NCBI GenBank assembly: GCA_964508975.1
Contig: CAZDVQ010000024.1
Span: 1-58,605 of the forward strand
Origin: an uncultured Saprospiraceae bacterium
GTDB lineage: Bacteria > Bacteroidota > Bacteroidia > Chitinophagales > Saprospiraceae
Length of the DNA stretch: 58,605 bases
Direction of reading: 5' to 3'
In this document: in pieces, positions 3,145 through 55,352 of the stretch
How the letters are laid out: each line of letters opens with the position of its first letter
Position numbering within the stretch: position 1 is the first letter of the stretch
Position numbers and translations under genes: made by a program
Notes under the pieces: model-generated
What the model was told of the DNA's origin: nothing
The model's database searches: none
What the model saw: only the letters and a program-made list of their open reading frames with translations

Positions 3145-3690
3145 TTACTCGGTTAATCGCCTGATAATCCAGGCCCCTAATCCAGCCAATATCAACAATA
3201 TGGAGGCAAACACAAAAAGCCACTTGAATAACGTAAAAGTAGCCGCTAGTTGAGCTACGAGGATTACTTTCTCGGGAAACTGGTTAACCATTGCTACTAT
3301 GCTAAAGTTTTCAGCATAGTCAAACAGCACAGCCAAAGCTGGTACCATACATAAACGCCCTGACCATTTATGTTCTGGTGTAACCTTTTGCCAAAGGTAA
3401 GCAATCAGTAAAATTAAGGTAAGCCCATAGATGATGGGATAAATCAAGTCTTCGCCAAAAGCAATGCTCTTATAAACTGCACGCCCAGCATCCCCAAGAT
3501 TTTCAACGGCCATTAGGGCCTCTTCCGAATGGTAGGTCGGAATCGTTAAGTCCAGTATTACACCGCCAGGACTAGCTTGCTCCATACGGGAAGCTGCCTG
3601 TGGCATGACCACAGCCGACATGAAAATATTAGCTGCCATAAAACAAATAACTAACCACCCTGGGACATTTCGATAGAATGCACGTATCAT
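3145..3690 (-). CDS. hypothetical integral membrane protein
   Basis: 181 aa with ATG start and 4-5 hydrophobic helices. No recognisable catalytic motif. Confidence 0.5.
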   Translation of the reverse strand: MIRAFYRNVPGWLVICFMAANIFMSAVVMPQAASRMEQASPGGVILDLTIPTYHSEEALMAVENLGDAGRAVYKSIAFGEDLIYPIIYGLTLILLIAYLWQKVTPEHKWSGRLCMVPALAVLFDYAENFSIVAMVNQFPEKVILVAQLAATFTLFKWLFVFASILLILAGLGAWIIRRLTE

Positions 3691-3762
3691 TTCTAATTAA
3701 ATTTAAACATGCTCTTAGACTATACCAACATCAAAAAGTCACAGGGTGATTTTACCTAACTC

Positions 3763-34990: not shown

Positions 34991-35129
34991 AATATATTTT
35001 TGATTCGTTCCCATTTAATTTAATTTTTTTTAAACATCCTTGTCAATCGTTGGAAAATTGGCTCTTATGCAAATCTTAGGTTATTGGTTGGTTTGAGAAG
35101 TTTTGTAAATGTGTCACCAAATGCAATGG

Positions 35130-37445
35130 CTAATATTTCGATTGTTTTAAAAAGTCTTTTAGTTTAATCGTCGTTATGCCAAAACCCTTGCATTTAAGCT
35201 GTATGCCATTGTCTGATGTCAACATAATAGGGTTTTCTTTTTTGTATTTAAGTGCAACTGTCAAAATAAAATTATCTGGCGATTTTTTGTCAAAGTCACT
35301 TGGCAACAAAGTCAGGTCGGCTATATCCATTTTGATATTCCGTTTGTCAAAACTGTCGTTGATTTGTTTGATTGCTTTTTGAACATTTTGTTTTTGTTGT
35401 TCTGTTTGCAGCGTTACTTTCAGTTTGTCCAACTCGTCAATGACTTTTGCAGATAAGACTATTTTATACTGTTTGTCAATTTTTGAAATTATGTCGGGCT
35501 GGTCAACAAATACGTTAGTGTCAATAATATAAATATTTTCCCTCCCATTAACGATTTCTTTCTTAGGCTTTTCAAATTGGGAAAGGTCTATTTTGCCAAG
35601 AACCTTTAATCCTGTTTGACTTTCTAATTTTTCTTCATCCTCAGGTGTATTTGATTCTGTCGTTTTGCTTTCAATTAGTTTTTTTTCAGTGGTATAATAA
35701 AACGAATATTCTTCATTTAATTTTTCAAGATAAGTTTTAACATATTTATTTAATTGAAAATCGGAACTGATAATATCCTTGTCTGCAATTATGATTGTAT
35801 GACGTTTTGAACGGCTTGTCGCAACATTGAACAAACGCTTTTCTAATGAATGATTGTAGCCTGAATTTGGAATTACCAAAATGGTTACGTCTGTGGTAAG
35901 ACCTTGTATTCTTGCTACTGTTTCAATCAATAAATTTTCATGGTTGTCAATTGATCCGTAAATGCTTTTTTGTAATGCCTTTACTGTCTCAATGTAATTG
36001 CTTAAAACAGAGATGTGCAATTTTTCTTCGACAGTCAGTAGATGAGTAACTAACAGCTTTGCTATTGCCGATGCGTTTACAGGCTTTTTACTTCCAACTT
36101 CCAAATCTGTTTTAATAAGCGTTGAACCGCCCTCCGGATTGAAAAATACGTTCACTTCATTAGTCATTTCAGGAAATGAAAGTCGTATGTCTGATTTTGA
36201 TTTTGATTTTAAACTGTTATTGTAGAACAATCCTGTGTAATAAGAACCTCTGTTTGGCAAACGATATGTTTCTGTAAGTTGATAAATCGGAACAGCAGAA
36301 GTATCTGCAAGAGCTTTCAATCCCTCCACTAAAATCTCATAATTCTTTTTACCTACTTTATCATCACTGATTGCAATAACTGGAGGCAACTGCATTGTGT
36401 CACCAATCCAAATATTTTTCTGCCCTAAAAGTTTTGCTGCACCAAACATTGCAAGTAACGCCTGGCTTGCTTCGTCAACTAATACATAGTCAAAAGGCGG
36501 TGTATTCGCAATCTTAGTTGCTTCGGTGCTTGCTATAAAAAAGGTGGATAAAACTAACTTGCCTGGTTGTGGATTTATATCCTTTGTCGGTTGTAATCTT
36601 GGAATTTCTTTGGCTTCATCTGTTGATATTTTGGTTTTAAAAACTTTACCCTCATCTAGAATAGTTGCTAATGCTGGTTTTTCAACGACTTCAATTAACG
36701 CTCTATTTGTAAGCGATGTAACTAAAACGGATTTTCCTTGCTCACATAAAAGTTTACAGATTTCAGCTATTTGATAGGTTTTTCCTGTGCCAGGAGGTCC
36801 TATCAAAACAACGTTATCGGATAATGTTAATTGATTTAATATGAAATTTGGTATATCATTTTTTTCATCAAGTAATGAAGGTTCCCCATTGGTTTTTAAA
36901 AAGTCTTGGTCTAAAATTGAACTTACTGCTTCAGAGTAGTTATTCTTAACTATTTTTTGTAAATTCTCTATATACCCATAGGGTGGGACATTCGGGCCTA
37001 AAAGCAATATAATTTTTTCCGCTTTTGAAATATTTACCGAAAAATCCAATTCAACACCACGAAAACCTGCGATGTAAAAGTCTTTATCAAGATTCCCGTC
37101 CTTGTCTTTTGACGGAGCTTGCCAAACGCAAACAGTTTCAGTAAAATTTCCTTTTTCTTTTATTAAGTCGCCATACGTTTTCTTACCCCAATTTCTGTAA
37201 TCTCTCAACTCTTTTGGAACAGTAAAACAATACAAATACTCGCCTTTGCGCGGTAAGCCACGTTTAGTTGAGAATTTTAAGATCATTTCTCCGTCTTTGA
37301 AAGTCAAAAATTGAGCAACAAAAAGCTCTTCCCTTTCTTGAAGCAAAAACGTAGCGGAAGTATTTAACTTTTGGTTAAATGCTTTCGTTTGTGCTTGAAG
37401 TTCTTCCTCAAGAAAGTTGCAGTGTTCTTGTCTAGTATATTTCAT
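35130..37445 (-). CDS. Upf1/DNA2-like SF1 helicase fused to a C-terminal PIN-domain nuclease (candidate defence effector)
   Basis: 771 aa. Walker A LIGPPGTGKTYQ, motif II DYVLVDEASQ, arginine finger/motif VI NVATSRSKRHTIII. C-terminal roughly 150 aa is a PIN fold with acidic residues in IYIIDTNVFVD, IDELDKL and TSDNG. The ATG at 37445 directly abuts the TAA of the upstream gene. Confidence 0.8.
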   Translation of the reverse strand: MKYTRQEHCNFLEEELQAQTKAFNQKLNTSATFLLQEREELFVAQFLTFKDGEMILKFSTKRGLPRKGEYLYCFTVPKELRDYRNWGKKTYGDLIKEKGNFTETVCVWQAPSKDKDGNLDKDFYIAGFRGVELDFSVNISKAEKIILLLGPNVPPYGYIENLQKIVKNNYSEAVSSILDQDFLKTNGEPSLLDEKNDIPNFILNQLTLSDNVVLIGPPGTGKTYQIAEICKLLCEQGKSVLVTSLTNRALIEVVEKPALATILDEGKVFKTKISTDEAKEIPRLQPTKDINPQPGKLVLSTFFIASTEATKIANTPPFDYVLVDEASQALLAMFGAAKLLGQKNIWIGDTMQLPPVIAISDDKVGKKNYEILVEGLKALADTSAVPIYQLTETYRLPNRGSYYTGLFYNNSLKSKSKSDIRLSFPEMTNEVNVFFNPEGGSTLIKTDLEVGSKKPVNASAIAKLLVTHLLTVEEKLHISVLSNYIETVKALQKSIYGSIDNHENLLIETVARIQGLTTDVTILVIPNSGYNHSLEKRLFNVATSRSKRHTIIIADKDIISSDFQLNKYVKTYLEKLNEEYSFYYTTEKKLIESKTTESNTPEDEEKLESQTGLKVLGKIDLSQFEKPKKEIVNGRENIYIIDTNVFVDQPDIISKIDKQYKIVLSAKVIDELDKLKVTLQTEQQKQNVQKAIKQINDSFDKRNIKMDIADLTLLPSDFDKKSPDNFILTVALKYKKENPIMLTSDNGIQLKCKGFGITTIKLKDFLKQSKY

Positions 37446-40400
37446 TTACAATAATTCTTCATCATCACCAGTTAATTCTTCTTCGTTTCTTCTTTCGTCG
37501 AAACGGTAATCGCTTAAATCTTTGGCTATGCTATAATCGCTCGGATTTACACTATTAAAATCAAAGTGGACGTTGCCGAAGTAATGAAGCAATTCGGCAA
37601 ATTTATCTAATCTGTCCTCTACATCAAGATTTTCTGTGCTAAAACTAATAGTAAGCTTATCCTGATTTCTCAATAAATCATATAATTTTAAGCATCCTAA
37701 TTTCCTGTTTCCAAAATGTAACCAAAACATTGAATTTGGTTTCATTAGTTGTATCCATTCGTTTGCTCCAATTTTTAAAGGCTCGTCTTCATATTTGTAA
37801 CTTTTTACAACAATCGGAAATTCAACATTATCTTTATAAACACCGTCAATTGTTGAGAACTTGCCTATTCCTTCAGTAAATTCAAATCCTTCTCTTTCTA
37901 ATTTTTCCTTGACAATTTCTTTTGCTTCTCGGTTAGCTTCTTTTTGGTCGTTTTTAGAAATGTCTGTGCTAAATTCACTTCCTAATGTAGCGTCGCTTGA
38001 TCTTCTTAATTGTGCGTTTTCTTTTTCTAATATTTCTAATTTGTTTTGCCACAATCCGTCAAAATTAAAATCGTTATACTCCTCCAATTCTAATTTTCTT
38101 AGTTCTTTTTTTACATCTGCGTTTTGATTTATGTAAATATTGTTTTTATCATCAACTGCGGTATTGCCTTCAAAAAAAGAATAGAACACATAATCTTCAA
38201 TTTCATTAAGTGAAATTGTTTTAGGTAATTCGCCTTCGTATAGAAAAATAGCAACATTAGAATCCTTTTTCCAATTTTCATAATATGATTCTTCCCACAC
38301 TAATGCGTTCTCTTCTAACTCTTCAACATCCAAATCCTCTTTAATTTCTAAATCTCCATTGTTGGTTCTGTTTTCATTGATAACTTCAACTACTTTCTTA
38401 AATGTTTCAAATTGTTCCGCTGTTTTGAATGTAACTTCGTTTTCTTTAAGCCAAACCAACGAATTGAATAGGTTTAATTCACCTTCGTTAAAACGTGTTT
38501 CTTGTGACAAACGATTGTTTTGAAAATCTTTTATTTTACCGCTTAAATATTTTCGCAATACAACAATGACAGAGCTTTCTGTCCACACGCCCAAGTCAGA
38601 AAGGAAATCAATTTTGGCATCTTCTTCACCAAGCCATTCTATTAGATAATCAGGTAGTAGTTCACTTTCACAAGCGTATTTACTTGGATAAACGGATGTT
38701 GTTGGATTGAATCCTAAAATGTTTTCAGTTTTTACATCATCAATTGTATTCCAATCAATATTTTTGATTGACGTCTTTTTACTTTTCTTATTCCACTGAT
38801 TGAATAAAAACTCTATAAGACTTAGTTTCTGCTCATCTGATAAATTTTCTTCAATGTACGGACAAATGAATTTAGCGTCTTCAAAATAAGGTTCTTTAAT
38901 GAGCAATAAATTATCATTGTCTTCTACTACAACAGGAAAGTCTTTGAATATTTTAGAAATACTTCTGTATTTTTTATGAAGTATTTCGGATTGCTGTATA
39001 AAATCAAAGTCCGTTAAATATTTATCTGTTCCCAGTTCTATTTCTTCTTCATTTACGTTTAGGGCATTAAACTGATTAAAATTTATTTTTTCAATATACA
39101 AACCGTAAAGAAACAAAAATGCTAATTGTTCGGCATTTTCCAATGTTTCAACTTGTTCAGAAAACATTTCATAAATGACGCTTGGTTCAGGTTCTTCACT
39201 TACGCCAAACAAATTCCCAATTCGCTCTTTGTTCAAACCAAGTCCAATAAAATGATTTATCAAACTGCTTAAATAGTCGCTGTTTTCGTAATTGTCTGGG
39301 AGAATTTTAGCAAGACTTATTTCATAATTATCAATTTTAATTTTATCCGTGAAGGGTGGAATTTCAGAAAGTTTTAAATCTTGATTTTCCGTTTCAATGA
39401 CAACTTTTTCTTTGAATTTTAGATAATCGTTTTCTTTCAGTTCACTACAAGCTAAATCTAAAATTTTATACTCGTAATCCTCCCTAGAGTATTCATTTTT
39501 AGAATTAAATCTGAACTCTGATAGTTGTTGTAAAAACTTGTGTTTGGCTTTATATTTTACTATATCCACAAGTATTTCTTTGTGTTCATCTGCATCAACA
39601 AATTCCAAAATCAAACCGTGCAAATCATCGGCTTTTATTATACCTTCTTCGTCCTTGTAGTTTTCCACAAACTCATAAGGAAGAACAAATAAATTGTCAG
39701 CACAATTTTCATCTAAAAATTTTCTTGCTTCCTTATCGGCTGATTGAACCTGATAGGTTTCGCTTGTTTTTTTATCGATTATAAAGTCTTTATTCTCTTT
39801 TTTAATTATGAACTCTTTGAAGAATGATTTTTGATTGTCTTGATAAAGATTAATAAGCGATTTAATTTCCTCTGCTGTTGTTAATTCAGCAATTATATCA
39901 TCTTGATTTTGTTGGTAAATTTCTTTGAAAATATTCCCTGAATCTAAAATCAGGTAGGGGTAGAGTTCAGCAAAGTATTCATCTTGTTTTATTTTGTGTG
40001 CGTTTAACCAACTTGGCGTTTTAATATTACCTATAAGTTCGCTTAGTGGTTTTATTTCTGAATTATTATTGCAAAATAATTCTAAGTTTTTTAATGTGCC
40101 TTCAGCAACATTATCAAACTTTGTTGTTTCGTTAATAAAACTGAGAAATAAAGTTTTCTTTTCTTTGGCTGACAAGGTGTTAGTTTTGCATTTTTCAGCA
40201 ATATAAGTGTACATCTGTTTTTCGTCAGGCATTATTTCAATACAAGAAAAAATGTTTGGATATTCAGAAGTAGTAATTTCAGATACAATGATTCCAATTT
40301 TGTCAAGCTCTTCTACGATGCCTATTGTTTTTTGTATTTTGAAAAAAACATTAGCAAAACCATAACTAGCGATAGTTCTATTTTGTGAGATTTGTTTTTT

Positions 40401-42128
40401 TACTATTTCATTGAACGAATAGAACTCGTCATTGGAAAATTTAAAAAGTTTGATTTGAGAAAGTTTCTCTTTAGTTTCCTTGCGCAAATAACTTTCTTCT
40501 AATTCATCTAAAAATGATTCATAAGTTTTTTTATCACAAGTAGCAATCCAATTATTTATACTTACCAGATTGGCATTTTCTACAATATCTCTGATGTCCC
40601 ATTCTTTAAGGCCCAATTTTTCTGTTTTGGTTGCTTCGTTAATCAACAATTTATCTACCTCACTATCCCACTCAAACCATTGAATATGGTTCAATCCTAA
40701 TTCCGATAAGTTTATAGAGAGTTTGAGCTTATTAATTTTTACGTTTTGAGCGTTGTCAGAAAAACCAATTTTGGTTGGTATATTTTCAGATAGGTATTGA
40801 TGAATGAAATTTGAAAAACTATTACTTATATGAGGCTTGTTTTTGGGGTCTTTCGACAGTAGAAAGTTAGAGTACAAAGACAAAAACAAATTACGGTTAT
40901 TTTCTTTCTGTATATCTGAATACTTAATTACGTTTTGTGCAATTAAGGGCAAAAGCTTTTCGTTGATTTGAGAATTAGCTTGAAGTTTACGCCTGTCATT
41001 ATTCATGTCAAAGGCATTGCAATGCAACAAAAAACTAAAACCATTCTTTTCTTCGTCCATAGAAAAGAACGTGTAAAGATTTGGTGCTAATTCATTTTGT
41101 AAATCAACAGCCTTTTTGTAATCATGATAAAATGCAAATGTGAATTTTATGTCCCGATTTTTATTTTTTGGATTTATGTCTTTGAATTCATTACTGCCAA
41201 TAGGAAAAGAATCTGAATAATCCAAAACAGCTTTTGCTTTGATTTCTTCGTCATTGATGTATATTTTTTGCAAGCTGTTCAAAAATTTGAAAGAATATGA
41301 CAATCCACTTTTAATTTTATCGATACCCTCATCAAGAAATTTGCTTTTACCCTTACCTAGTTTGAGAAAGAAGATTGAGCCGCTTTTTAAATTGTTTGTT
41401 TCTTTCAGATTTACGTTTTGCAGTGAATGTTTTAAAAATGTCCTCATTTCGGACAATTCGTTTTTTGAAAACCTTATGCCTTCTGTATCGTAGTTTTGCA
41501 ATTTTAATTTTTCGTCCAAATGAGAAGGAAAACAAGTGTAAAGCAATTTTATAAGCCAAGGATTTTCGCTATCCTTTGTTACGTCGAAGCCTACTTTGAT
41601 TTCATCTTCCTTTAGAAATGCATCTAATTGAAAAAATTTATTCCAGCTAAAAATGATTGGCCCTGCATAATCGTTTATTATAGCTTCTCTTCCATCATCA
41701 GCACCAACTAATCTGTGTAAAATTTTGAAGCCAATACCAAATGTGCCAATATCTTCTCCATCTTTGTAGTTGCCAGCAACATTGATGATTGCGGACATGT
41801 CACGGTCTGAAAAATAATTCCCATTGTTTATGCAGAGTAAATAGTCCTCATTGTAGCTCACGCTAAAAAAAGACGATTTACAATCGTCAGCGTTTTGAAT
41901 AAGTTCATATATGGCTTGGTCGTCTGCGGCTACGTTTAAAGCAATTGTTCCTAGTAGTTTTCCTAAATCTTCCCTATTACCATAAATCAGTTTTGAAAAT
42001 CCAGTTTCTCTACGTTTTCTGTCGGGATGTAATGAACCCACAAAGTTGAGGTCTATATAACCACTTTCTCTCGCAACTTCTTCTTTGTAGAATCTACGAA
42101 AATAAAAAGCATTTCTTGTGTATAACAT
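37446..42128 (-). CDS. giant sacsin/Hsp90-like GHKL ATPase with C-terminal DUF3883/PD-(D/E)xK-like domain (candidate defence protein)
   Basis: The ORF track starts on TTG at 42197; the first ATG is at 42128 (MLYTRNAF). GHKL N-box AIYELIQNADDC and G2 box GTFGIGFKILHR. About 1200 aa of low-GC helical middle region. The C-terminal segment GFEFTEGIGKFSTIDGVYKDNVEFPIVVKSYKY fits a DUF3883/restriction-endonuclease-like D...E.K core. Confidence 0.8.
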   Translation of the reverse strand: MLYTRNAFYFRRFYKEEVARESGYIDLNFVGSLHPDRKRRETGFSKLIYGNREDLGKLLGTIALNVAADDQAIYELIQNADDCKSSFFSVSYNEDYLLCINNGNYFSDRDMSAIINVAGNYKDGEDIGTFGIGFKILHRLVGADDGREAIINDYAGPIIFSWNKFFQLDAFLKEDEIKVGFDVTKDSENPWLIKLLYTCFPSHLDEKLKLQNYDTEGIRFSKNELSEMRTFLKHSLQNVNLKETNNLKSGSIFFLKLGKGKSKFLDEGIDKIKSGLSYSFKFLNSLQKIYINDEEIKAKAVLDYSDSFPIGSNEFKDINPKNKNRDIKFTFAFYHDYKKAVDLQNELAPNLYTFFSMDEEKNGFSFLLHCNAFDMNNDRRKLQANSQINEKLLPLIAQNVIKYSDIQKENNRNLFLSLYSNFLLSKDPKNKPHISNSFSNFIHQYLSENIPTKIGFSDNAQNVKINKLKLSINLSELGLNHIQWFEWDSEVDKLLINEATKTEKLGLKEWDIRDIVENANLVSINNWIATCDKKTYESFLDELEESYLRKETKEKLSQIKLFKFSNDEFYSFNEIVKKQISQNRTIASYGFANVFFKIQKTIGIVEELDKIGIIVSEITTSEYPNIFSCIEIMPDEKQMYTYIAEKCKTNTLSAKEKKTLFLSFINETTKFDNVAEGTLKNLELFCNNNSEIKPLSELIGNIKTPSWLNAHKIKQDEYFAELYPYLILDSGNIFKEIYQQNQDDIIAELTTAEEIKSLINLYQDNQKSFFKEFIIKKENKDFIIDKKTSETYQVQSADKEARKFLDENCADNLFVLPYEFVENYKDEEGIIKADDLHGLILEFVDADEHKEILVDIVKYKAKHKFLQQLSEFRFNSKNEYSREDYEYKILDLACSELKENDYLKFKEKVVIETENQDLKLSEIPPFTDKIKIDNYEISLAKILPDNYENSDYLSSLINHFIGLGLNKERIGNLFGVSEEPEPSVIYEMFSEQVETLENAEQLAFLFLYGLYIEKINFNQFNALNVNEEEIELGTDKYLTDFDFIQQSEILHKKYRSISKIFKDFPVVVEDNDNLLLIKEPYFEDAKFICPYIEENLSDEQKLSLIEFLFNQWNKKSKKTSIKNIDWNTIDDVKTENILGFNPTTSVYPSKYACESELLPDYLIEWLGEEDAKIDFLSDLGVWTESSVIVVLRKYLSGKIKDFQNNRLSQETRFNEGELNLFNSLVWLKENEVTFKTAEQFETFKKVVEVINENRTNNGDLEIKEDLDVEELEENALVWEESYYENWKKDSNVAIFLYEGELPKTISLNEIEDYVFYSFFEGNTAVDDKNNIYINQNADVKKELRKLELEEYNDFNFDGLWQNKLEILEKENAQLRRSSDATLGSEFSTDISKNDQKEANREAKEIVKEKLEREGFEFTEGIGKFSTIDGVYKDNVEFPIVVKSYKYEDEPLKIGANEWIQLMKPNSMFWLHFGNRKLGCLKLYDLLRNQDKLTISFSTENLDVEDRLDKFAELLHYFGNVHFDFNSVNPSDYSIAKDLSDYRFDERRNEEELTGDDEELL

Positions 42129-42496
42129 TATATTTTTATTTTTTGGAATTGATGATGTGTCCGCAATGCGGTTGTGACACAAGTAAATGTGTTGCAACGG
42201 TGTCGGCTAATGCATTGGTTTTCAAATCTTTTGATTTTGTGAAGTCTTGGCATTTTGTCTGTTGTATTACTGTTTGTTTTTGTTGTGTCGTCTTTTAGCA
42301 TCACAACCAACCTCCCCGCAGCCACAACTCCCCTGGCTTTATAGTGTCACTATTCAGGTTTAATGAATAGAACAAGTAGCTAGTACCCGTGTGTGTTGTG
42401 TTACAACGAATGATAGGTCCTGTGCAAAGGTATTGAAAATATGCTAATCTCAGTAATTTTTATCATCAATTTATAGGGCATTTTACGTGCTTTGGG

Positions 42497-42700
42497 TGCT
42501 TGGTGCTTGGTAAGGCTCGATGGGGTTTCGGTCCGGCTACCGTTCCGTGGCGATTTCTGTATTGGGCATTCTCGTCTGGCTTGCCGCCACGGGGTTTTGG
42601 TTGTTGCTTTAAACCCCGGGTTGCGCTGCGCTTAACCCGCGGCTACCGATATTGCCTGCCCCTTGGGCAGGATTTAGCGCGCAGCACGCAGCGTGAAATT
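42497..42700 (+). repeat. about 180-nt structured repeat element (family B), plus-orientation copy
   Basis: Aligns with the reverse complement of 23822-24012 and contains the hairpin ctgcccc-ttg-ggcag. Lies immediately upstream of a GC-rich repeat, the same composite arrangement as at 23.8-24.4 kb. Confidence 0.75.
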
Positions 42701-46907: not shown

Positions 46908-47672
46908 ATGAACCCTCGTGTAAAAGCCCTGCTGGATGCCAAGCTGCTGGAATATAACCAGCCCGGCTTTATTGCTGACGACCCTATTTCAATCCCGCAT
47001 CGGTTTAGCCAGAAACAAGATATTGAAATCACTGCTTTTTGGGTGGCCATGCTGGCCTGGGGACAACGCAAGAGCATTATCAACAGTGCCAACAAGCTGA
47101 TTGCCTTGATGGATAACGCGCCCCACGACTTTGTGCTGAACCATGCCGAAACCGACCGCAAGCGTTTTCTGGATTTTGTACACCGTACCTTCAACGCCAC
47201 GGATGCCTTGTATTTCCTCGATTTTTTCCAGCGGTACTACCAGCAGCACGATAGCTTGGAGCAAGCCTTTTCGCGGTTTATCAGTCCTGCCGATGAGCAC
47301 GTGGAAGCGGCTTTAATTGGTTTTCACCGTTTATTTTTTGACCGTCCTTACGCGCCGCAGCGCACGCGTAAACACGTGAGCACGCCCGAGCGAAAATCGA
47401 CTTGCAAGCGGCTCAACATGTTTTTGCGCTGGATGGTGCGGCAAGATAACGCCGGCGTCGATTTTGGTATCTGGCAGGAGGTAAAGCCCGGCCAACTGCT
47501 CGTGCCACTGGATGTACACGTAGAGCGCCAAGCCCGGATGTTGGGCCTCATTGAGCGCAAACAAACCGATTGGCAAACGGTGTTGGAGCTAAGCGCAACG
47601 CTGCGTCAACTTGACCCCTCGGACCCCGTGAAATACGATTATGCGTTGTTTGGGATGGGGTTGGAGCGTTAA
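46908..47672 (+). CDS. TIGR02757/DUF2400-family protein
   Basis: 254 aa with a conserved Bacteroidota hypothetical pattern (FWVAMLAWGQRKSII...RLNMFLRWMVRQDNAGVDFGIW). Confidence 0.55.
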   Translation: MNPRVKALLDAKLLEYNQPGFIADDPISIPHRFSQKQDIEITAFWVAMLAWGQRKSIINSANKLIALMDNAPHDFVLNHAETDRKRFLDFVHRTFNATDALYFLDFFQRYYQQHDSLEQAFSRFISPADEHVEAALIGFHRLFFDRPYAPQRTRKHVSTPERKSTCKRLNMFLRWMVRQDNAGVDFGIWQEVKPGQLLVPLDVHVERQARMLGLIERKQTDWQTVLELSATLRQLDPSDPVKYDYALFGMGLER

Positions 47673-48580
47673 ATCAAACCCAATTCTTTAGCTTCTTGTA
47701 TGGCGGACTCTACTATTGACTGCTCTACGCCTAAAGTAAGGGCAATAGTTTGAATATCATGCCCTTTTTTATATTGATCAATAATTTCTAGGGCAAGCCG
47801 CACGCCTTCTTCCTTTCCTTTTTCGATGCCTTTTTCGATGCCTTCGAGATTGCCTTTTTGAATTCCTTTATTGTATAGGTAGTCGGTTTCAACGTCTTCA
47901 AGTTCAATGTAGATGGGCATGGTGTTGAAGTTTTCGATTAAAAGATGGTCAAATTTACGTAAACGTGCTAAGTTGAGCAACTGTGCGTGATATTTTTTTA
48001 GTTTGTTGAGGTCATGACAACATTGATGCAATTTTATGACTATAGAACGCAAAACTTGTTCTGTTTGTTCCTTGCTAAACTTGGCAAACACTGCGAAGAT
48101 AATCACCTCGGGCACTTGGGAGGAGAGGAATTGCTCTGGGTCCAGCTCATTCAGCGTGATGATGTCGTACTCAAAATGTGAACGAAGCCCTGTAAGCTGC
48201 CGAACCATGCGATGTGGCTTAGAGTCTAGATAGATAACTATTTGCCAAACGGGTAGTTTGTATTTTTGGCTAATCAAGCCATAATAAACCAGCATCCTAT
48301 AGTGCATTTCAGGGTCGGTTCTAGATTGGAATTCCATATGAACCAACAGGCGTGTACCATCTGCTTGTGTCACCTCGTACAACATGTCAAGTTCTCGTTC
48401 CAAGGTACTTTGTAGCTTGCCGGGCAAAGGTTTTATGTTAATCCATCTCGCATCAGGGGTCAGTGCCTTGAACAACTCCAGGGCATTTTCCTTGATGATT
48501 TTATCATAGATGTTCCCTGTATCGGGTATGGGGGGAATCGGTTTGTTTTCCATGTCGCAAAGTTCTGGCGACTGGCCCAT
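47669..48580 (-). CDS. Rpn-family recombination-promoting nuclease/putative transposase (PD-(D/E)xK, YhgA-like)
   Basis: N-terminal nuclease core (LLVHMEFQSRTD) and a C-terminal DUF4351-like helical tail with repeated EKGIEKG. Alternative start at 48553 (MENKPIP). Confidence 0.65.
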   Translation of the reverse strand: MGQSPELCDMENKPIPPIPDTGNIYDKIIKENALELFKALTPDARWINIKPLPGKLQSTLERELDMLYEVTQADGTRLLVHMEFQSRTDPEMHYRMLVYYGLISQKYKLPVWQIVIYLDSKPHRMVRQLTGLRSHFEYDIITLNELDPEQFLSSQVPEVIIFAVFAKFSKEQTEQVLRSIVIKLHQCCHDLNKLKKYHAQLLNLARLRKFDHLLIENFNTMPIYIELEDVETDYLYNKGIQKGNLEGIEKGIEKGKEEGVRLALEIIDQYKKGHDIQTIALTLGVEQSIVESAIQEAKELGLI

Positions 48581-48919
48581 TAAACCTATTCGACTGGGTT
48601 ATACTTGACCCGTTTAGGTAATACTATATTACAATTTGCGAAATTTTTGGAATATCGCCCCCGTCTAAGCCCCAACGACACATTTTCCGCTCCAATCTCC
48701 TCTCTTCTATCTCCGCTCTCCTATCTAAGCCCCGTGGCCCACATTGACCACGGGGACCGCCCAAAATGAATAAATGATAAAGGGAATAAATGAATAAACG
48801 ACATGCACGGCACTTACCTTAATGTACCAATTAAAGGGTACATACTTACACGTATATAGACTCTGTAATTTGATAGGTATTTGTTTTCGGTATTCTAAAA
48901 TGCCGTAGACTTACGCCCG

Positions 48920-50350
48920 CTAGTCCTCGCGACTACCGTCAGCAGCCATACGCACCATTTTTGGTTGGAACATGGCCACCACGTCAACCAGCTCGGTTTG
49001 CGCTTGCATCACCTCGTGGATGTTTTTGTAGGCCATCGGTGCCTCGTCGAGACCACCGCCAATCAAGGTTACGCCGTGTAGTTTCAACTCGTCGCGCAGG
49101 GCTTGCTTGGTCCCAGCCTTGATGGCCTTGGTTCGGCTCATCTGTCGACCAGCGCCGTGCGAGGCTGATTGCAACGCGCTTTCAACTCCTTTTCCGCGCA
49201 CCAAGAAGCCTGGTGCCGTCATGCTACCTGGGATAATACCCATCACGCCTTTGGCGGCAGGGGTTGCTCCTTTACGGTGTACAATCACTTCCTCGCCGTT
49301 CCAGATCTCTTTCCAGGCGAAGTTATGGTGGTTTTCTACCTTGGCCAACACGTGGCCACCGATGGCTGCCGTCAGTTTTCGGTGGATGACCTCGTGGCAG
49401 GCCGAGGCGTAATCGCCAGCCAGGTTCATGGCCAACCAGTACTCCATACCTTCTTGGCTATCCAGCGACAAGTACGCTAGGTTTTGGGCTTCTTGCGGCA
49501 ATTTACACAGGCTCTTGGCCAACTTGGTGTAATGCCCGGCAATGGTTGCCCCGAAACCGCGTGAACCAGAGTGGGTCAACAAAGCCACGTATCGGCCTTT
49601 TGGTATACCCAGGACCTCGTCGGCCTGGGCAAACTCAATGATGCCCCACTCCACGAAATGGTTTCCACCACCCGAGCTCCCCAGTTGGGAATAAGCCTTA
49701 TCACGCAGGTTTTTCACGAAAGGGTTGATGTTGAACAAGTCGTTTTCCAGCACGGCATGGTCGCTCTTGTACTGTGGTTTAAAGCCATGTCCAGCGCCAA
49801 ACAAGCTATGGGCAATCAACTCGCGTTTGTACTTGGCCTCGTTTTCCAAGAAATGGCTTTCCGGGATATCGTAGATACTCAAGGCCATTCGGCAACCGAT
49901 GTCCACGCCCACGCCGTAAGGTATAATCGCATTCCGGGTAGCCAACACCCCGCCGATAGGCAGGCCGTAGCCCTGGTGGGCATCTGGCATCAAGGCCCCG
50001 GCCACGGTAACGGGTAGTTTCATGGCGGTTTTCATCTGTAGGTGGGCGCCTTCCTCGATATGTTCGGTCCCGAACACGGCGTACTCGGCAGGGTTTTCCA
50101 ACAGCTCGATACAGGCATCGGCTTCGGCTTGCTCGGCGATATCCAATAGGCAGCGGGCTACTTGGTTAAAGTATTCCATATCCAAGAAATCGGCTGGGTT
50201 TTCCAGCACTTGTTGCAGGGTTTGCAGCAAGATCTCGGCTGGCATATGCGGCAAGTGTTGCTCGGCGATTTGCAAGGCAATACCGATGGCCTTGTTCTCG
50301 GCATAGCCGAGGGCGAGGAGATGTTCTCCGCCTATAATATTATTTTTCAT
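48920..50350 (-). CDS. rtcB: RNA-splicing ligase RtcB
   Basis: 476 aa with metal/GTP-binding motifs DAHQGYG, GVDIGCRM, HSGSRGFG and NHHNFAW, and the catalytic His in SHGAGR. Confidence 0.9.
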   Translation of the reverse strand: MKNNIIGGEHLLALGYAENKAIGIALQIAEQHLPHMPAEILLQTLQQVLENPADFLDMEYFNQVARCLLDIAEQAEADACIELLENPAEYAVFGTEHIEEGAHLQMKTAMKLPVTVAGALMPDAHQGYGLPIGGVLATRNAIIPYGVGVDIGCRMALSIYDIPESHFLENEAKYKRELIAHSLFGAGHGFKPQYKSDHAVLENDLFNINPFVKNLRDKAYSQLGSSGGGNHFVEWGIIEFAQADEVLGIPKGRYVALLTHSGSRGFGATIAGHYTKLAKSLCKLPQEAQNLAYLSLDSQEGMEYWLAMNLAGDYASACHEVIHRKLTAAIGGHVLAKVENHHNFAWKEIWNGEEVIVHRKGATPAAKGVMGIIPGSMTAPGFLVRGKGVESALQSASHGAGRQMSRTKAIKAGTKQALRDELKLHGVTLIGGGLDEAPMAYKNIHEVMQAQTELVDVVAMFQPKMVRMAADGSRED

Positions 50351-51035
50351 AGTATGGATTTAACTCCACAAAAGTCAATTTTACTAATAATTTTAAAAAT
50401 TCAAAGGACTTTTGCGTAAATTCATTCACAAAGCCTTGTGATGTTATTTGATAAGACCTATGAACACCAGGTTTTCCATCTAATAAGCAATGATAGTTTG
50501 AATTCAAAAGAATTCCATCCAGTTTTTGTAGGAATGATTCGAAGTTGTCCTGTTTTGCGCTGAAATAAAAACTACCCATGGGATAATGGGCAAATTGGTT
50601 TCTCAGTATTCTAAATAGGTATATTTGAGTTCGTAATGACTGAAATTCCTGGGATAAATTTACATCTTTAAGCAGATTATTCATGGCATCTTCTGGGCTT
50701 GAATAAGTTACAATTTCTGTGGGCTCTAAATTTTTGCACCTCCATTGGTAATGAAAAAGTATGTTGTTTATAGAATTATCTAATAGAATAGTCAATTCAA
50801 TCAATGCGTTTTTAAACATTATAGAGTGAGTTATGCTTTCTACCCCTGCTTTCTTTTCCAATGAATTATTTATAATGCATTCGCTAGCAAAAGAATAAAT
50901 ATTAATCACATTGTTCACACCCGCAGCATATTCTTGAGGGAGTCCATGCACTAAATTATCCCAAAAATTCTTGCCAAGCTTGTCATTTGTGGTTATTGAT
51001 GAAAATAATATTGAATGCCTTTTCCTTTTATTCAT
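50340..51035 (-). CDS. hypothetical protein with an RNxxAH HEPN-like motif (possible Abi/HEPN RNase)
   Basis: 231 aa, low GC, overlaps the rtcB start by 11 nt. Motif LFRILRNQFAHY fits R-x4-H, as in Abi_2/DUF4145-type HEPN domains. Confidence 0.5.
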   Translation of the reverse strand: MNKRKRHSILFSSITTNDKLGKNFWDNLVHGLPQEYAAGVNNVINIYSFASECIINNSLEKKAGVESITHSIMFKNALIELTILLDNSINNILFHYQWRCKNLEPTEIVTYSSPEDAMNNLLKDVNLSQEFQSLRTQIYLFRILRNQFAHYPMGSFYFSAKQDNFESFLQKLDGILLNSNYHCLLDGKPGVHRSYQITSQGFVNEFTQKSFEFLKLLVKLTFVELNPYYEK

Positions 51036-51083
51036 GATGGAGTAATATTAATTATTCGGAATACTAAAATATGTTTCAAAAAA

Positions 51084-51944
51084 CTATTCACGGTCTTTCA
51101 TCCAAACCCAGGAAGTGTAATCGTTCGAGCTCGCACGCGGGGAAATTTCATCTAATTCATAGGTGCCATCTTCTTGCAAAACATTAATCAATAGAGGCCC
51201 ATCTATTGCCTTACGCAAGTAAATATTACCATAAAATTCAAAATACTGCAATAGGTAATCATGGACAAGCAGCGTTTTATGAATTATTTCAGCCCATTGC
51301 TTAAACGAAAGGCTGTAAACGGAATCGAGATTTTCCTTAGCATTTCCATATCCAATATTATTACCCATGAAAAAGTATTGAGAGTGTGCAATCGAGTTTC
51401 GAATTTGCGTATTGTAGATATCTTTAACTAGCTTTGAAAATTTCGGACAAGAAACCTCTGTAGGCTTAATAATTTTTTCTAAGATGAAAGAGCTTCTCCT
51501 ATAAAGTTCCCTTGAGAGATCGTTCCATCTATAATTTTTATGATTAGCTAAATTGATAAGTTGATGAATTTTTTTTAAGGTCATTTCGGATTCCCAAAAT
51601 TTCAGGTAAATTTGTTTTTCAATGTTGATGGAATAGAGTTCTGTATTTTTCAGTTTTGTATCTAATTGGGCCTGCACTTCAAACTCTTCCATCGTTCCAG
51701 GAAGTTTGTAAGCCTCTCGGTGGAGTATTAAAAATTGATTTACGGTGGACTCGCAGTGCCCTATTATATCAGGTCCCAAGCAACGCTTAGTCTCTCCGTT
51801 TGCATCTTTTTGAAAACATGCATGGGCAATAACTAGCAGTAAATCCTGCTCATGCTTTTGGTTCTGAAAAGCATTTTTAAATAGTTCTTCAACAGCTTGA
51901 CCTACTTCGTCTCTGTATTCCTTAACAATTTCATCAAAAATCAT
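51084..51944 (-). CDS. hypothetical protein with an RNxxAH HEPN-like motif (paralog-like to the 50340-51035 gene)
   Basis: 286 aa, low GC. Motif NTQIRNSIAHSQY has the same RN..AH pattern as its neighbour. Confidence 0.5.
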   Translation of the reverse strand: MIFDEIVKEYRDEVGQAVEELFKNAFQNQKHEQDLLLVIAHACFQKDANGETKRCLGPDIIGHCESTVNQFLILHREAYKLPGTMEEFEVQAQLDTKLKNTELYSINIEKQIYLKFWESEMTLKKIHQLINLANHKNYRWNDLSRELYRRSSFILEKIIKPTEVSCPKFSKLVKDIYNTQIRNSIAHSQYFFMGNNIGYGNAKENLDSVYSLSFKQWAEIIHKTLLVHDYLLQYFEFYGNIYLRKAIDGPLLINVLQEDGTYELDEISPRASSNDYTSWVWMKDRE

Positions 51945-52023
51945 GATTTGAGATTTAGAAGATTATTAGATTTTTTAGTTTTAAACTGGAATTTACATCA
52001 AGATTTAGCCATGATGATAGTGC

Positions 52024-52944
52024 TTAGCTTTTTTTATGAGGTGTAGATATTTTAACAGTTGTTTTTATTTGAACAATTCCTTTGTTAATAGAATTGCTTT
52101 TCTCTATTACGTCCTTGCCAAAAATGGGTACTTCAACAGGTAAATTTGCTTTCACATCTTTTTCAAATTTCAAAGATAGTCTCCGGAAATTGATTAAACT
52201 ATATATCAACTCCGAGCAAAACAACGTCATTTTATAATCCCTTTCATGGTTTTGAATTTTTGTCACAACACTCAGTTCATCTTTTTTAGATCCTTTTGTG
52301 TAGAAAGACATTGAGTCTTCTAGGTTAACATTCATAAGTGGTTTAACGGTCTTAGGATCGACAAATGTAACTTTAGAAAACATCGGTACAATTCTAAGTC
52401 CATGTTTATAAGAATTGTACTCTGTTCGATCTGAAAAGTCTTTGGCGAGAATAGTAATACCATATTTTATGGCGCCAATGCTTTCCAAAATATCTTTAAT
52501 AAATTCTTTATTATTAAATATGCCCATATAGAACAAATAATGTCCAACGGTAACGTGATGTCCTTGAAAGTTTATTTTTTTATCTAGAAAATTTAGAATT
52601 TCAGGATTTTCCGCTATCCGATTTATGAAGGCGTAATTCTTCTGCCAATTAGAATTTGTAATATTGAAAAGAATATTTTTATCATCAAAACTTTCCTTTC
52701 CATCAGGATTGAGCGCAAACAGTAGCTCAAAAAAACTTTCAATAGCATGAAAGTAATTTTGGCGAAGTTCGCTTTTGAGGGTTCTACGAATAGAATCTCT
52801 ATCTTCATCAGAAGTATCCTCTCCAAAGAACTCTTTTAGATAGTTTTCCTCTAGTCCAGCTATCATTTTGTTTAAATAAGTAGCTTTGTACTTGTGGTAC
52901 TTAGAAATGTAAGATTGGTAAAATAATTCTGGCTCAAAATACAT
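52024..52944 (-). CDS. hypothetical protein (low-GC island gene)
   Basis: 306 aa with ATG start, coding-like periodicity, no TM segments. Contains ELRQNYFHAIE (R-x4-H), but this could be coincidental. Confidence 0.45.
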   Translation of the reverse strand: MYFEPELFYQSYISKYHKYKATYLNKMIAGLEENYLKEFFGEDTSDEDRDSIRRTLKSELRQNYFHAIESFFELLFALNPDGKESFDDKNILFNITNSNWQKNYAFINRIAENPEILNFLDKKINFQGHHVTVGHYLFYMGIFNNKEFIKDILESIGAIKYGITILAKDFSDRTEYNSYKHGLRIVPMFSKVTFVDPKTVKPLMNVNLEDSMSFYTKGSKKDELSVVTKIQNHERDYKMTLFCSELIYSLINFRRLSLKFEKDVKANLPVEVPIFGKDVIEKSNSINKGIVQIKTTVKISTPHKKS

Positions 52945-52984
52945 GATTCGTTATTTTTCAATGTAATAGAAAGTAAGTTAAACG

Positions 52985-53045
52985 AGGAATGTAGGGGCAG
53001 GGCTCGCCCCTGCCCAACAACATCGCGGTTTTTGGGGCTTAGGAA
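52985..53045. repeat. short GC-rich hairpin repeat related to the internal hairpin of the REP family
   Basis: gtaggggcagggctcgcccctgccc, compare gggcaggggcaagccctgcccc at 13540-13562. Confidence 0.5.
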
Positions 53046-53114
53046 TCAGGTTTCAGCTGCTAGGCATCAGTATAATAACTAACCCCTAATAACTAAAACC
53101 TAATCCCTCACACC

Positions 53115-54266
53115 TCATTTCACAAAAATTTGTTTTAGTTGTTCAATCAGTTGGCCGTTACCCGACAGGTTGATGTTGTTGATTTTTTCCGCGATTTTTT
53201 CCACGTACTCCATTTCTTTCAACTTGTACAGGGTCGCGTTTTCTTCCATCAATTTGGCGGTGTTCAACAAGCTACGCATCGAGGCCGTTTCTTCGCGGCG
53301 CATGATGATGTTGGCTTGGGCGCGTTTTTCGGCAACCAGTACTTGGTTCATGATGTCGCGCATCTCGCCGTTCAAGATAATATCTTTCACACCGGCGTTG
53401 AACAGGGTCAAGCCCAGGTTTTCCACTTGTGCCGACACGGTTTCCAACACCTTGGCCGTGATGCTTTCCTTGTTGTCCATCAGTTCGTCCAGGCTCATTT
53501 GGCCTACGTATTCACGCAAGGCCAGCTGCAACAGGGCGTACAGTTGTTTCTCAAAGTCCTTGTTCTCTTCCAGCGCTTTCACGATGTCGATCACTTGGTA
53601 TTGCACCACGAAGTTGATGCGGATTTGCGCTTTGTCGCGGGTCAATATTTCCTGGCCGTTCACCTCCATGTTCTGGCGGCGCATATCGGTTTTGGCTACA
53701 TGAACCGTGATAGCATTTTTGTAAAAGTAGTAGGTACCGGCGTCCAAGATACGGTCTTGTTTACCGTCCAGGTACAGGATCGCTTTTTCAAAAATCTCGA
53801 CCTTTACCGAGCGCAGGTAGCCGTTCAAGAAACCTTTTTCAATCAGGTTACGGTCAATTTCGGTACCTACTTCCAGTTGGTTCAGGTTGGCGCGTTGTAT
53901 CGTGAAGGTGTAAATACCTTTTACATAAGCGTGGCGGCCCACACCCAGTACCGATTCAAACTTACCGTCTTTGTACAAAATGGCAAACTCGTTATCCTGC
54001 ACGTCAAAAACATCTAGCTCGGCTCTGATGTCGACGTATTTCAGCAATAAATCTAAGTTGTAGCGGCTTGTAAAAGCTTTGCCGCGTTCAATTAGTTCCA
54101 AATCGTCAAAGAAATTGATCATGGTTCGACCTGTTTTCAGCACCTTCACGAACTCGTTCGAGCGGAAAACCAGGGCTAATTTGTTCGAATTTACAGTAAT
54201 GATACTCATGATAAAAGGTATAAAAAGATGATAATAAACGGTTAAAATAGGCGAGTGCTGGTTCAT
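53115..54266 (-). CDS. SPFH/band-7 (stomatin/flotillin-like) domain protein
   Basis: N-terminal hydrophobic anchor. SPFH core (DKAQIRINFVVQYQVIDIVKA...LGLTLFNAGVKDIIL) followed by a coiled-coil tail. Confidence 0.8.
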   Translation of the reverse strand: MNQHSPILTVYYHLFIPFIMSIITVNSNKLALVFRSNEFVKVLKTGRTMINFFDDLELIERGKAFTSRYNLDLLLKYVDIRAELDVFDVQDNEFAILYKDGKFESVLGVGRHAYVKGIYTFTIQRANLNQLEVGTEIDRNLIEKGFLNGYLRSVKVEIFEKAILYLDGKQDRILDAGTYYFYKNAITVHVAKTDMRRQNMEVNGQEILTRDKAQIRINFVVQYQVIDIVKALEENKDFEKQLYALLQLALREYVGQMSLDELMDNKESITAKVLETVSAQVENLGLTLFNAGVKDIILNGEMRDIMNQVLVAEKRAQANIIMRREETASMRSLLNTAKLMEENATLYKLKEMEYVEKIAEKINNINLSGNGQLIEQLKQIFVK

Positions 54267-54357: not shown

Positions 54358-54480
54358 GGATGATTTGGGCACCCCGCCGCTACGCGGCGGCGGTCCCCTA
54401 CGTGCTCGCTATTCGCTCGGCCCCTGGCGGGGCTGGCCGCTACGCGGCCACACTCCGGGCACCTGGCGCAGCATCATCTT
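54358..54480. repeat. GC-rich REP/MITE-like repeat, most canonical copy
   Basis: tttgggcaccccgccgctacgcggcggcggtcccctacgtgctcgctattcgctcggcccctggcggggctggccgctacgcggccacactccgggcacctggcgc. Reverse complement of 55236-55352 at better than 85% identity. Confidence 0.85.
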
Positions 54481-54785
54481 ACTGTTAAGTCAAGGTTTGT
54501 AGCAACAAGCTTAGCTGAAAGCGTGGCGCGAGCCAGTGCCCGCGGCGATTCAAAGCGCTACAAGCGCTGAATCCCTTGTTGTGTTAAGTTCCCGAGCAAA
54601 ATTACTTTACGTTAAAAACTTGCATATTTCCAGTCATACTTCGTTGTAAAAAGTGCGTCGTAGGAACCACTACGCCTTATTTTTACGCCTCGTCTGCCAG
54701 AAAATCTGCGGCGTTTTTATTTGTAAGCAATTTCGCCCGAGAACTTACAACCGAATGCCTTTGCACTCGCCTTGCTGAACATTTG

Positions 54786-54946
54786 AAAAGTGTTCGACTT
54801 TTAAAGGATGGATTAAAATTCCATTGCATGACCACTATGCTACCCCACGATGCCGTGGGGGCAGGATTCGAACCTGCGTGAATGAAGTGTTGCTCTACCA
54901 GCTGAGCTATTGTTCTTGCGAACAAATGGGACTCGAACCCACGACC
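54786..54946 (-). pseudogene. cluster of tRNA-like modules in non-canonical (permuted/degenerate) order; no intact tRNA could be folded
   Basis: Read 5' to 3' on the minus strand, the modules run as follows. T-arm GTGGG-TTCGAGT-CCCAT. Closed hairpin TTGTTC-GCAA-GAACAA. TA plus D-arm GCTC-AGCTGGTA-GAGC. A 13-nt unpaired segment. T-arm GCAGG-TTCGAAT-CCTGC. Closed acceptor-like hairpin CCCCACG-GCAT-CGTGGGG. TA plus D-arm GCAT-AGTGGTC-ATGC. Anticodon arm ATGGA-ATTTTAA-TCCAT (UUU, Lys). Degenerate T-like arm AAAAG-TCGAACA-CTTTT. Acceptor strands pair only with the neighbouring unit. ORF-track entries 54683-54949 (-) and 54824-55099 (+) are translations of these modules (AQLVEQ, GFESH, GSNPA). Confidence 0.45.
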
Positions 54947-55235
54947 CACACGCTGTTGAATTTTTTGCGGCTACTAAACATACCGTGCAAGAGGCTTGTC
55001 GGCATTGTGGTGCTATACAGAAACACCGACGCTGAGTGGCTCATTCTTTCAACATTGCAAAGATGTAGGCAATACTGCGCAGTATATTTGCGCAGTTAAA
55101 TTTATTTTTGAAAAAGTTGAAAATTTATGCCCATTTAATTTTTAATATATTGATATTCAATATTTTAAAATTAAAATTATTTTTCAAAAATTTAACCACT
55201 AAAATCACATTTACACAAGTGCGCAGATAGATTGC

Positions 55236-55352
55236 GTTGTTGTCCGCGCCAGGTGCCCGGCGTGTGGCCGCGTAGCGGCCAGCCCCGCAAGGGGCCGAGC
55301 GTCTAGCGAGCACAGAGGGGACCGACGGCGCGCTAGCGCCGGGGCGCCCAAA
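55236..55352. repeat. GC-rich REP/MITE-like repeat, GCGCCAGG-first orientation
   Basis: gcgccaggtgcccggcgtgtggccgcgtagcggccagccccgcaaggggccgagcgtctagcgagcacagaggggaccgacggcgcgctagcgccggggcgcccaaacc. Confidence 0.85.

Follow-up and report, generated by a model that had tools for sequence, protein, structure and literature searches.

AT-rich genes with HEPN-like features inserted into a conserved Band-7/RtcB RNA-repair operon of a Saprospiraceae bacterium

Organization of the locus

The locus described here is an RNA-repair operon of an uncultured Saprospiraceae bacterium, found on contig CAZDVQ010000024.1 of GenBank assembly GCA_964508975.1, of which positions 1 to 58,605 of the forward strand were analysed; this whole stretch of 58,605 nucleotides is referred to below as the window. 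The operon codes for the RNA ligase RtcB and an SPFH/Band-7 protein, between which lie three AT-rich open reading frames (ORFs), designated ORF231, ORF286 and ORF306 after the lengths of their products in amino acids. All five genes are on the minus strand and are transcribed in the order SPFH, ORF306, ORF286, ORF231 and RtcB. The original prediction, made from the sequence of this locus by itself, was right about the presence and low GC content of the three genes beside rtcB, but its placing of them downstream of that gene holds only in plus-strand coordinates, as they are upstream of it by transcription. The features of the operon, from its 5' end, are as follows:

54772-54956, minus strand: tRNA-like non-coding RNA (ncRNA), YrlA-like, with apparent circularly permuted tRNA-like modules
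53115-54266, minus strand: SPFH/Band-7 scaffold protein, a native operon gene with a Band_7 match
50351-53032, minus strand: AT-rich insertion of about 2.7 kb, comprising the three ORFs and a leader that contains a GC-rich hairpin
52024-52944, minus strand: ORF306, from a family without annotation; its model has a helical core like that of HEPN domains, and its conserved site is non-canonical
51084-51944, minus strand: ORF286, of an unannotated family, the best HEPN candidate, with an R182-N-S-I-A-H187 core and an invariant E118
50340-51035, minus strand: ORF231, a near-orphan with R145-N-Q-F-A-H150
48920-50350, minus strand: RtcB 3'-phosphate/5'-OH RNA ligase of 476 aa, a native operon gene

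From SPFH through the three-ORF block the genes are separated by gaps of 48-170 nt, all on the same strand, and the stop codon of ORF231 and the ATG of rtcB overlap by 11 nt; the coordinates bear out the overlap that had been noted earlier. The GC fraction is 0.30-0.35 in the three ORFs, 0.54-0.57 in rtcB and 0.47-0.51 in the SPFH gene. The motifs LRNQFAHY, IRNSIAHS and RQNYFH, which had first drawn attention to these genes, are all found in the translated ORFs, and the SPFH/Band-7 identity of the gene beyond them is confirmed by a match to Pfam Band_7 (PF01145, E=4e-26).

The AT-rich block is foreign DNA in a conserved operon

Relatives with an empty site were drawn from a cluster of RtcB proteins at 90% identity, and their contigs match the flanks of the block in the window at 95-98% nucleotide identity. 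In two of them, L096 (a 440-kb JGI contig) and L097, the region equivalent to 50351-53032 is missing and the SPFH and rtcB genes are separated by a spacer of 59 bp and 48 bp, respectively, these empty-site spacers consisting of variable short repeats. The SPFH genes of both relatives are 95-98% identical to that of the window in nucleotide sequence, and the corresponding value for rtcB is 96.7%. The right junction of the insertion coincides with the rtcB start codon, and the N-terminus of RtcB reads MKNNIIGGEH here versus MNNITGQD in L096. No direct or inverted repeats flank the insertion beyond short ones at chance level. Because relatives 95-98% identical to the window possess only the spacer, and because the GC fraction of the ORFs (0.30-0.35) contrasts with that of the flanks (0.47-0.57), the 2.7-kb AT-rich block is foreign DNA that was inserted into a short SPFH-rtcB spacer in this strain; the earlier view of the three genes as accessory DNA is thus upheld.

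The genes bracketing the insertion have a different history. RtcB matches the Pfam model RtcB (PF01139) over its full length (profile positions 1-423 of 426, E=2.3e-80) and has an N-terminal extension of about 95 aa, and its orthologues in Pedobacter and Sphingobacterium, which are 63-72% identical, lie 3' of an SPFH gene. The SPFH protein itself likely starts at M20 (position 54209, giving 364 aa), since its homologues align from residue 19-20. A genome scan with this protein recovered more than 574 relatives in Bacteroidota, out of which 80 loci were fetched for counting: rtcB is directly 3' of SPFH on the same strand in 47 of the 80, 3' of it after an insert in 17 and 5' of it in five.

A profile search with nhmmer detected the tRNA-like ncRNA in 77 of these 80 loci, always on the same strand as SPFH and 190-450 nt 5' of it. 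For 29 of its sequences RNAalifold predicted 31 base pairs, 21 of them with compensatory changes; in the 3' half, where the alignment is rich in insertions and deletions, the program gave no structure and pairing is seen only in a single sequence. In Rfam, the minus strand at 54888-54950 partially matches YrlA's tRNA-like module with 42 bits (E=7e-7), short of the gathering score of 69, and there are two further sub-threshold tRNA matches in the region, one tRNA model match scoring 27 bits. On the minus strand the elements occur in the order T-arm, closed acceptor-like hairpin and D-arm, which amounts to a circularly permuted module, and a further T-arm, hairpin and D-arm come after it. The RNA appears to consist of two such tandem modules, with covariation supporting only the 5' two-thirds; the 3' D-arm, the anticodon-like arm and the terminal hairpin are read by eye and from the 27-bit tRNA model match.

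In some bacteria the gene for RtcB has been described as having for neighbours that of a Band-7 protein and a predicted tRNA-like ncRNA, termed 'b7a-tRNA', and YrlA is likewise sometimes found adjoining a Band-7 protein (Burroughs & Aravind 2016, as summarized in bioRxiv 10.1101/312249). The ncRNA of the window is a conserved, YrlA-like tRNA-like element, which would correspond to the 'b7a-tRNA' type as that type is outlined in the summary. The 'tRNA-like cluster' of the original prediction is therefore a real and conserved element, but it contains no true tRNAs (ARAGORN reports 0) and is not the end of an island. With an RtcB-family ligase, a same-strand SPFH/Band-7 neighbour and a tRNA-like ncRNA, all three of the defining features are found here, and SPFH, ncRNA and RtcB constitute one conserved, previously described RNA-repair operon of Bacteroidota. 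We ruled out that these three are themselves parts of a mobile island, as the operon is conserved and remains intact in the empty-site relatives. The comparison with L096 and L097 also refutes the earlier suggestion of a single mobile island reaching from an Rpn-like gene on the far side of rtcB to the tRNA-like cluster.

Sequence and structure of the inserted genes

The HEPN active site is defined as R-x4-6-H with a polar residue (N, D or H) following the arginine, lying where helix 3 ends and before helix 4 of a four-helix core, and a second conserved acidic residue occurs upstream in helix 2, often as E-x3-K/R (PMC3710099). Among the three ORFs the closest agreement with this definition is seen in ORF286. 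A word-indexed search recovered a single homologue of this protein, and an exhaustive HMMER profile search recovered 395 cluster representatives. In an alignment of 55 members, with identities of about 25-30%, the only invariant residues are Met1, E118, W140, R182 and H187, while N183, A186 and S188 are each conserved in at least 90% of the sequences. Since R182 and H187 never vary in this set and N183 and A186 seldom do, the RNxxAH motif is the core of the ORF286 family. In the AlphaFold model (predicted local distance difference test score, pLDDT, 95.5; predicted template modelling score, pTM, 0.92) the motif sits where a helix (179-186) ends, and a beta-hairpin and then a long helix (214-248) come next; E118 is at the end of the helix spanning 96-118, and a D/E120-x3-K124 pattern is seen in the family consensus. 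In this model the position of the motif is consistent with the published definition of the HEPN site, and Csx1 offers a precedent for a hairpin after the motif (PMC3710099).

For ORF306 we found 94 homologues (at least 94 sequence clusters). The segment R61-Q-x-Y-F-H66, E69 and E73 are conserved in at least 90% of members, E69 and E73 being invariant in a set of 35 sequences, and a second segment, E175-Y-N-x-Y-K-H181-x-x-R184, is fully invariant. In the model (pLDDT 89.6) the stretch from R61 to E73 falls on one long helix and that from E175 to R184 at the end of the next core helix. If ORF306 is a HEPN protein it would, going by the order of its helices, be a variant, with R61-x4-H66 on the would-be helix 2 and NxYKH at the site that corresponds to the end of helix 3. 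HEPN chains were the top-ranked structural matches for two independent models. These data support, but do not prove, that ORF286 is a HEPN-type protein whose catalytic signature is intact; for ORF306 the same can be said with less assurance.

A search of every open frame in the window that is 100 aa or longer (23,464 residues in total) returns the strict RN..AH pattern at only two places, in the neighbouring ORF231 and ORF286. When the three proteins were shuffled with their composition preserved, at least one carried the pattern in 40 of 20,000 trials and at least two in 0 of 20,000, so that the pattern is shared by the two genes more often than chance would allow. The loose pattern R....H, with 35 matches in the frames of the window, is uninformative by itself. 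Comparison of the three ORFs with one another by BLASTP and hhalign returned only a motif-level alignment of ORF231 with ORF286 (probability at most 5.7%), and kinship among them was rejected.

Scans against Pfam, NCBIfam, PADLOC and PHROGs gave no significant match for ORF231, ORF286 or ORF306. One of the 55 ORF286-family members gave a single match to HEPN_Swt1, at an E-value of 0.017, which is below threshold and not significant; no member rises above any Abi_2, DUF4145 or Swt1-type Pfam model, and the specific assignment to these types that had been proposed is not sustained. The broader proposal of HEPN ribonucleases fared better in part: the features of ORF286 agree with it, but ORF231 depends on a motif seen in two sequences and the site of ORF306 is non-canonical. 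The same lack of matches bears on the alternative that the ORF proteins are not nucleases at all. Foldseek found no PDB match (against the PDB the ORF286 model retrieved nothing significant), no HMM of any HEPN family matches and non-catalytic HEPN domains are known (PMC3710099), all of which would fit such a reading. Against it, the invariant R, H and upstream E, together with the N after the R, in ORF286 relatives of only about 25-30% identity make up the signature of active HEPN domains (PMC3710099), and HEPN chains held the top ranks for the two independent models; we consider this alternative improbable.

The gene-neighborhoods of the homologues are informative. One ORF306 homologue is lodged between hsdM and hsdS of a type I restriction-modification (R-M) operon in Niabella pedocola (L004, 6463-14265), in which hsdR is moreover preceded by an Mrr_cat nuclease gene. 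Another lies beside an MNT/HepT pair in Arenibacter, a third lies among insertion sequence (IS) elements with a DUF4238 gene, and others are solitary insertions between housekeeping genes. An ORF286 homologue is found beside transposases and a Schlafen/AlbA_2 gene, and another in an island that is bounded by an integrase and also holds a HEPN-DUF2807 gene, AbiEi/AbiEii and a DEAD helicase. Both families thus consist of stand-alone genes of a kind found in defence islands. With about 395 and at least 94 clusters, respectively, and matched by neither Pfam nor PADLOC, they define two sizeable families of candidate new HEPN-type defence genes. As regards a phage origin, INPHARED gave 0 matches for the three families, and IMG/VR contributed two loci for the ORF286 family and one for the ORF306 family.

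ORF231 presents a different picture. Among 5.8 billion clusters it has one homologue (P0002, 47% identity), and no further relatives were found in two metagenome scans, IMG/VR or the INPHARED phages. The LRNQFAH motif is kept in both known sequences, a number (n=2) too small to establish conservation. When the window is compared with the sister contig L001, nucleotide identity is 92-97% over ORF286 and 96-99% over rtcB, with RtcB proteins 99% identical, and falls to 44-74% across exactly the ORF231 gene (51101-50340). The two ORF231 proteins are 47% identical, the N-terminal part being more diverged and the C-terminal part that bears RNxxAH better kept, and in L001 the overlap with the rtcB start is 4 nt. 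Because exactly one gene differs between near-identical flanks, this pattern indicates a gene-sized recombinational exchange of alleles, or else diversifying selection, as is typical of conflict genes. The allelic replacement flags ORF231 as a putative gene of this kind.

The SPFH-rtcB spacer in other genomes

To place the insertion in context we surveyed the 17 SPFH-RtcB loci in which 650 bp or more are inserted between the two genes, with the following contents:

Two tandem paralogous RlaP (PF10127) nucleotidyltransferases: 11 of 17 loci, in Pedobacter and Sphingobacterium (L009, L013, L014, L019, L025, L033, L042, L046, L058, L061, L063)
Metallophosphoesterase: 2 of 17 loci (L015, L022)
TPR protein: 2 of 17 loci
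AT-rich orphan of 249 aa with no Pfam match: 1 of 17 loci (L027, 11176-11925, Pedobacter alluvionis)
AT-rich HEPN_Cthe2314 protein of 259 aa: 1 of 17 loci (L029, 11282-12061, Flavobacteriaceae bacterium PS02338)

The SPFH-rtcB spacer is thus an accessory slot, variable in content, of a repair operon that is widespread in Bacteroidota. The L029 protein matches Pfam HEPN_Cthe2314 with 31.3 bits (gathering score 27.1, E=2.4e-7), and the TGA of its gene overlaps the rtcB ATG (ATGA). The slot genes of L027 and L029 were compared with ORF306 and ORF286 as possible relatives, and no relation was found. From the sequence match, then, an unrelated predicted HEPN gene has independently reached the same slot in L029, where it likewise overlaps the start of rtcB. 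The pairing of HEPN and RtcB that had been put forward gains plausibility from this independent case, but the three families of the window were never seen beside RtcB in the other loci examined.

The contents of the slot raise another possibility, namely that the three ORFs encode accessory factors of repair or processing, and not toxins, which would trim or recognise damaged RNA ends, or process the tRNA-like RNA of the operon, and so supply clean cyclic-phosphate ends to RtcB. HEPN nucleases process RNA in Ire1/RtcB splicing and in Las1-dependent rRNA processing, bona fide repair accessories occupy the slot elsewhere (two RlaP proteins in 11 loci, a metallophosphoesterase in two), and the gene order and overlap indicate co-expression with rtcB. 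However, the ORFs are absent from relatives that are 95-98% identical and have an intact operon, and are therefore dispensable for repair; their homologues reside in R-M, abortive-infection (Abi) and toxin-antitoxin islands and not in repair operons; and turnover driven by conflict is indicated both by their richness in AT and by the swapped ORF231 allele. An accessory role of this kind is very unlikely on balance.

Nearby insertions and the upstream region

Two further features of the locus lie outside the block:

47661-48916, minus strand: separate insertion with a weakly Rpn/PD-(D/E)XK-like gene (47669-48580), lacking in L096 and L097
55076-55094, no strand: palindrome TGCGCA-N7-TGCGCA, about 125 nt 5' of the ncRNA

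The first of these, 1.26 kb long, was inserted independently between the stop of rtcB and a convergent DUF2400 gene; in L096 and L097 the rtcB stop abuts the DUF2400 gene directly. All its family matches are sub-threshold: TIGR01784 with 19.2 bits against a cut-off of 52.1 (E=8.6e-4), PF04754 (Transposase_31) with 15.3 bits against 21 (E=0.016) and DUF2887 with 17.7 bits against 24.1 (E=0.004). Sub-threshold scores for these three related families suggest that the gene is a distant relative only, and it cannot serve as the flank of the same island, as the original prediction had it, being a separate insertion on the other side of rtcB. In the sister contig L001 an APH-family phosphotransferase gene (2949-3956, within an insert at 2825-4150) is situated between rtcB and the Rpn-like gene, and because this gene has also been inserted there the junction 3' of rtcB is a site of repeated insertion. 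Farther away, at 35116-42613 of the window, is another strain-specific insertion of 7.5 kb relative to L096, which encodes a 1583-aa protein without a Pfam match and a 771-aa superfamily 1 (SF1) helicase (AAA_11/AAA_12) fused to a PIN_4 RNase domain. From its domain content this block looks like a further putative RNA-targeting defence module near the repair operon.

Upstream, 15 of 78 other Bacteroidota loci have exact copies of this perfect palindrome within 1 kb 5' of SPFH, and the whole 1.5 Mb of fetched loci contains no more than 21 such copies; on this distribution it is a candidate operator of the repair operon. GC-rich REP-like sequences in inverted orientation (54376-54450 and 55240-55340) flank the ncRNA region, and a 171-bp stretch between the ncRNA and SPFH (54582-54752) is missing from L096.

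The abundance of insertions around the operon lends itself to the explanation that the block is a passenger: a mini defence island of three independent stand-alone genes in a permissive hot spot, to which RtcB is irrelevant and in which the overlap with its start is a by-product. Homologues of ORF286 and ORF306 always occur without RtcB, other strain-specific insertions are found nearby (the Rpn-like gene, the APH gene of L001 and the 7.5-kb helicase-PIN block), and the empty site is a spacer of variable short repeats. Yet two unrelated genes, ORF231 and the HEPN_Cthe2314 gene of L029, both end in a stop/start overlap with rtcB; the slot elsewhere holds mostly RNA-repair genes (RlaP, phosphoesterase), which argues that the position is tied to the function of the operon; and the products of HEPN cleavage are chemically the substrates of RtcB. 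We regard the passenger explanation as rather unlikely, if more probable than either of the alternatives discussed above.

Functional interpretation

RtcB seals RNA ends that carry a 2',3'-cyclic phosphate and a 5'-OH. Based on the above observations we propose that the ORFs encode metal-independent endoribonucleases of the abortive-infection or toxin type, which would be triggered by phage infection or stress to cut tRNA, rRNA or mRNA. Such cuts would leave 2',3'-cyclic-phosphate and 5'-OH ends, the substrate of RtcB. As only short gaps separate these same-strand genes and the last ORF runs into the rtcB start, rtcB is probably co-transcribed and translationally coupled with the three ORFs. 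RtcB could then limit or undo the damage that the cell inflicts on its own RNA, so that an enzyme would provide the protection otherwise expected of a protein antitoxin. We hold the chances to be about even that this overall picture is correct; a specific functional coupling of the ORFs to RtcB is possible, though its chances fall somewhat short of even.

Several results weigh against this proposal. The HEPN status of ORF231 rests on a motif in two sequences, with one homologue to compare, and in ORF306 the R-x4-H lies mid-helix instead of at the canonical site, with two members having Q in place of H66. Profile scans extended to 55 relatives of ORF286 and 35 of ORF306 disclosed no link to a HEPN family, and sequence profile searches of the PDB gave 0 matches for all three families. 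In neither the 80 SPFH loci nor the neighborhoods of homologues that were examined does any of the three families lie beside RtcB, so that for these families the pairing is not conserved, and no antitoxin or sensor is recognisable in the block in the Pfam, NCBIfam, PADLOC and PHROGs scans. In addition, both the SPFH-rtcB and the rtcB-DUF2400 junctions resemble general insertion hot spots, having received Rpn-like, APH, RlaP, Metallophos and TPR genes between them.

A more elaborate version of the proposal would be a reversible cut-and-reseal immunity circuit, in which HEPN-like RNases are embedded in the repair operon, the hypervariable ORF231 acts as the specificity or sensor allele and RtcB religates what has been cut. 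On infection, host RNAs or the operon's own permuted tRNA-like RNA would be cleaved and translation halted, and the co-translated RtcB, scaffolded by the Band-7 protein and the ncRNA, would then religate the same RNAs and allow recovery. We judge this circuit unlikely, slightly more so than the absence of any nuclease activity, but if true it would represent a bacterial counterpart of the Ire1-RtcB logic with an enzyme as the antidote, and the independent capture of unrelated HEPN genes in the slot would mark a general design principle of the operon. If the simpler proposal of putative RNases coupled to RtcB is true, the locus would be a natural case of RNase effectors wired, both transcriptionally and translationally, to the ligase that undoes their damage. 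The idea that bacterial RtcB operons reverse conflict-related RNA damage would in that event become testable with three small genes.

Comparison with known systems

New HEPN families are common finds, which limits the weight of any novelty here, and a further limit is that the backbone of the operon has already been described, as far as the summary of the 2016 survey goes. Relative to that survey, as it is summarized, what appears to be new is the presence of putative HEPN RNases in an RtcB operon, the two unannotated families and the allele swap of ORF231. The likeness to the described Band-7/tRNA-like ncRNA/RtcB operon, as represented in that summary, extends to RtcB, the same-strand Band-7 neighbour, the upstream tRNA-like ncRNA and the retention of this arrangement in related Bacteroidota. 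The difference is that three foreign AT-rich genes split the Band-7-RtcB junction here, whereas in the relatives this junction is occupied by a spacer of 20-300 bp or by accessories known from repair (RlaP, phosphoesterase).

The combination of cleavage and ligation has precedents. Phage T4 Pnkp/Rnl1 repairs RNA cut by the anticodon nuclease. PrrC and RloC, which are found in type I R-M loci and have been assigned to HEPN (PMC3710099), resemble the genes described here in that Niabella pedocola has an ORF306 homologue placed between hsdM and hsdS, and in the same logic of cleaving and then ligating. Unlike in those systems, the ligase is host-encoded here and in the same operon as the putative nuclease, and no ABC-ATPase domain is present. 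RtcB is also known to reseal the cuts of metal-independent RNases, as with the KEN (HEPN) domain of Ire1/RNase L in eukaryotes and with RtcB2-PrfH versus colicin E3 in bacteria (PMC9223846, PMC9304027). These systems differ in that nuclease and ligase are not co-encoded with a translational overlap and in that the nucleases belong to other families.

With the Abi_2/AbiD, DUF4145 and Swt1-type families the inserted genes share the RNxxAH-type motif and the occurrence as stand-alone genes in defence contexts, although no ORF286- or ORF306-family member reaches the Pfam models of these families. As compared with the type VII HepT/MntA system (DUF86), ORF286 and ORF306 have roughly double the length and contain additional helices as well as inserts in the form of a beta-hairpin or sheet; unlike HepT they have no adjacent MNT antitoxin gene, and they show no similarity to it at the level of sequence profiles. 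Taken together, and by analogy, the inserted genes are most like stand-alone HEPN genes of the Abi or toxin type, with a HepT-like core and a PrrC-like embedding in R-M loci.

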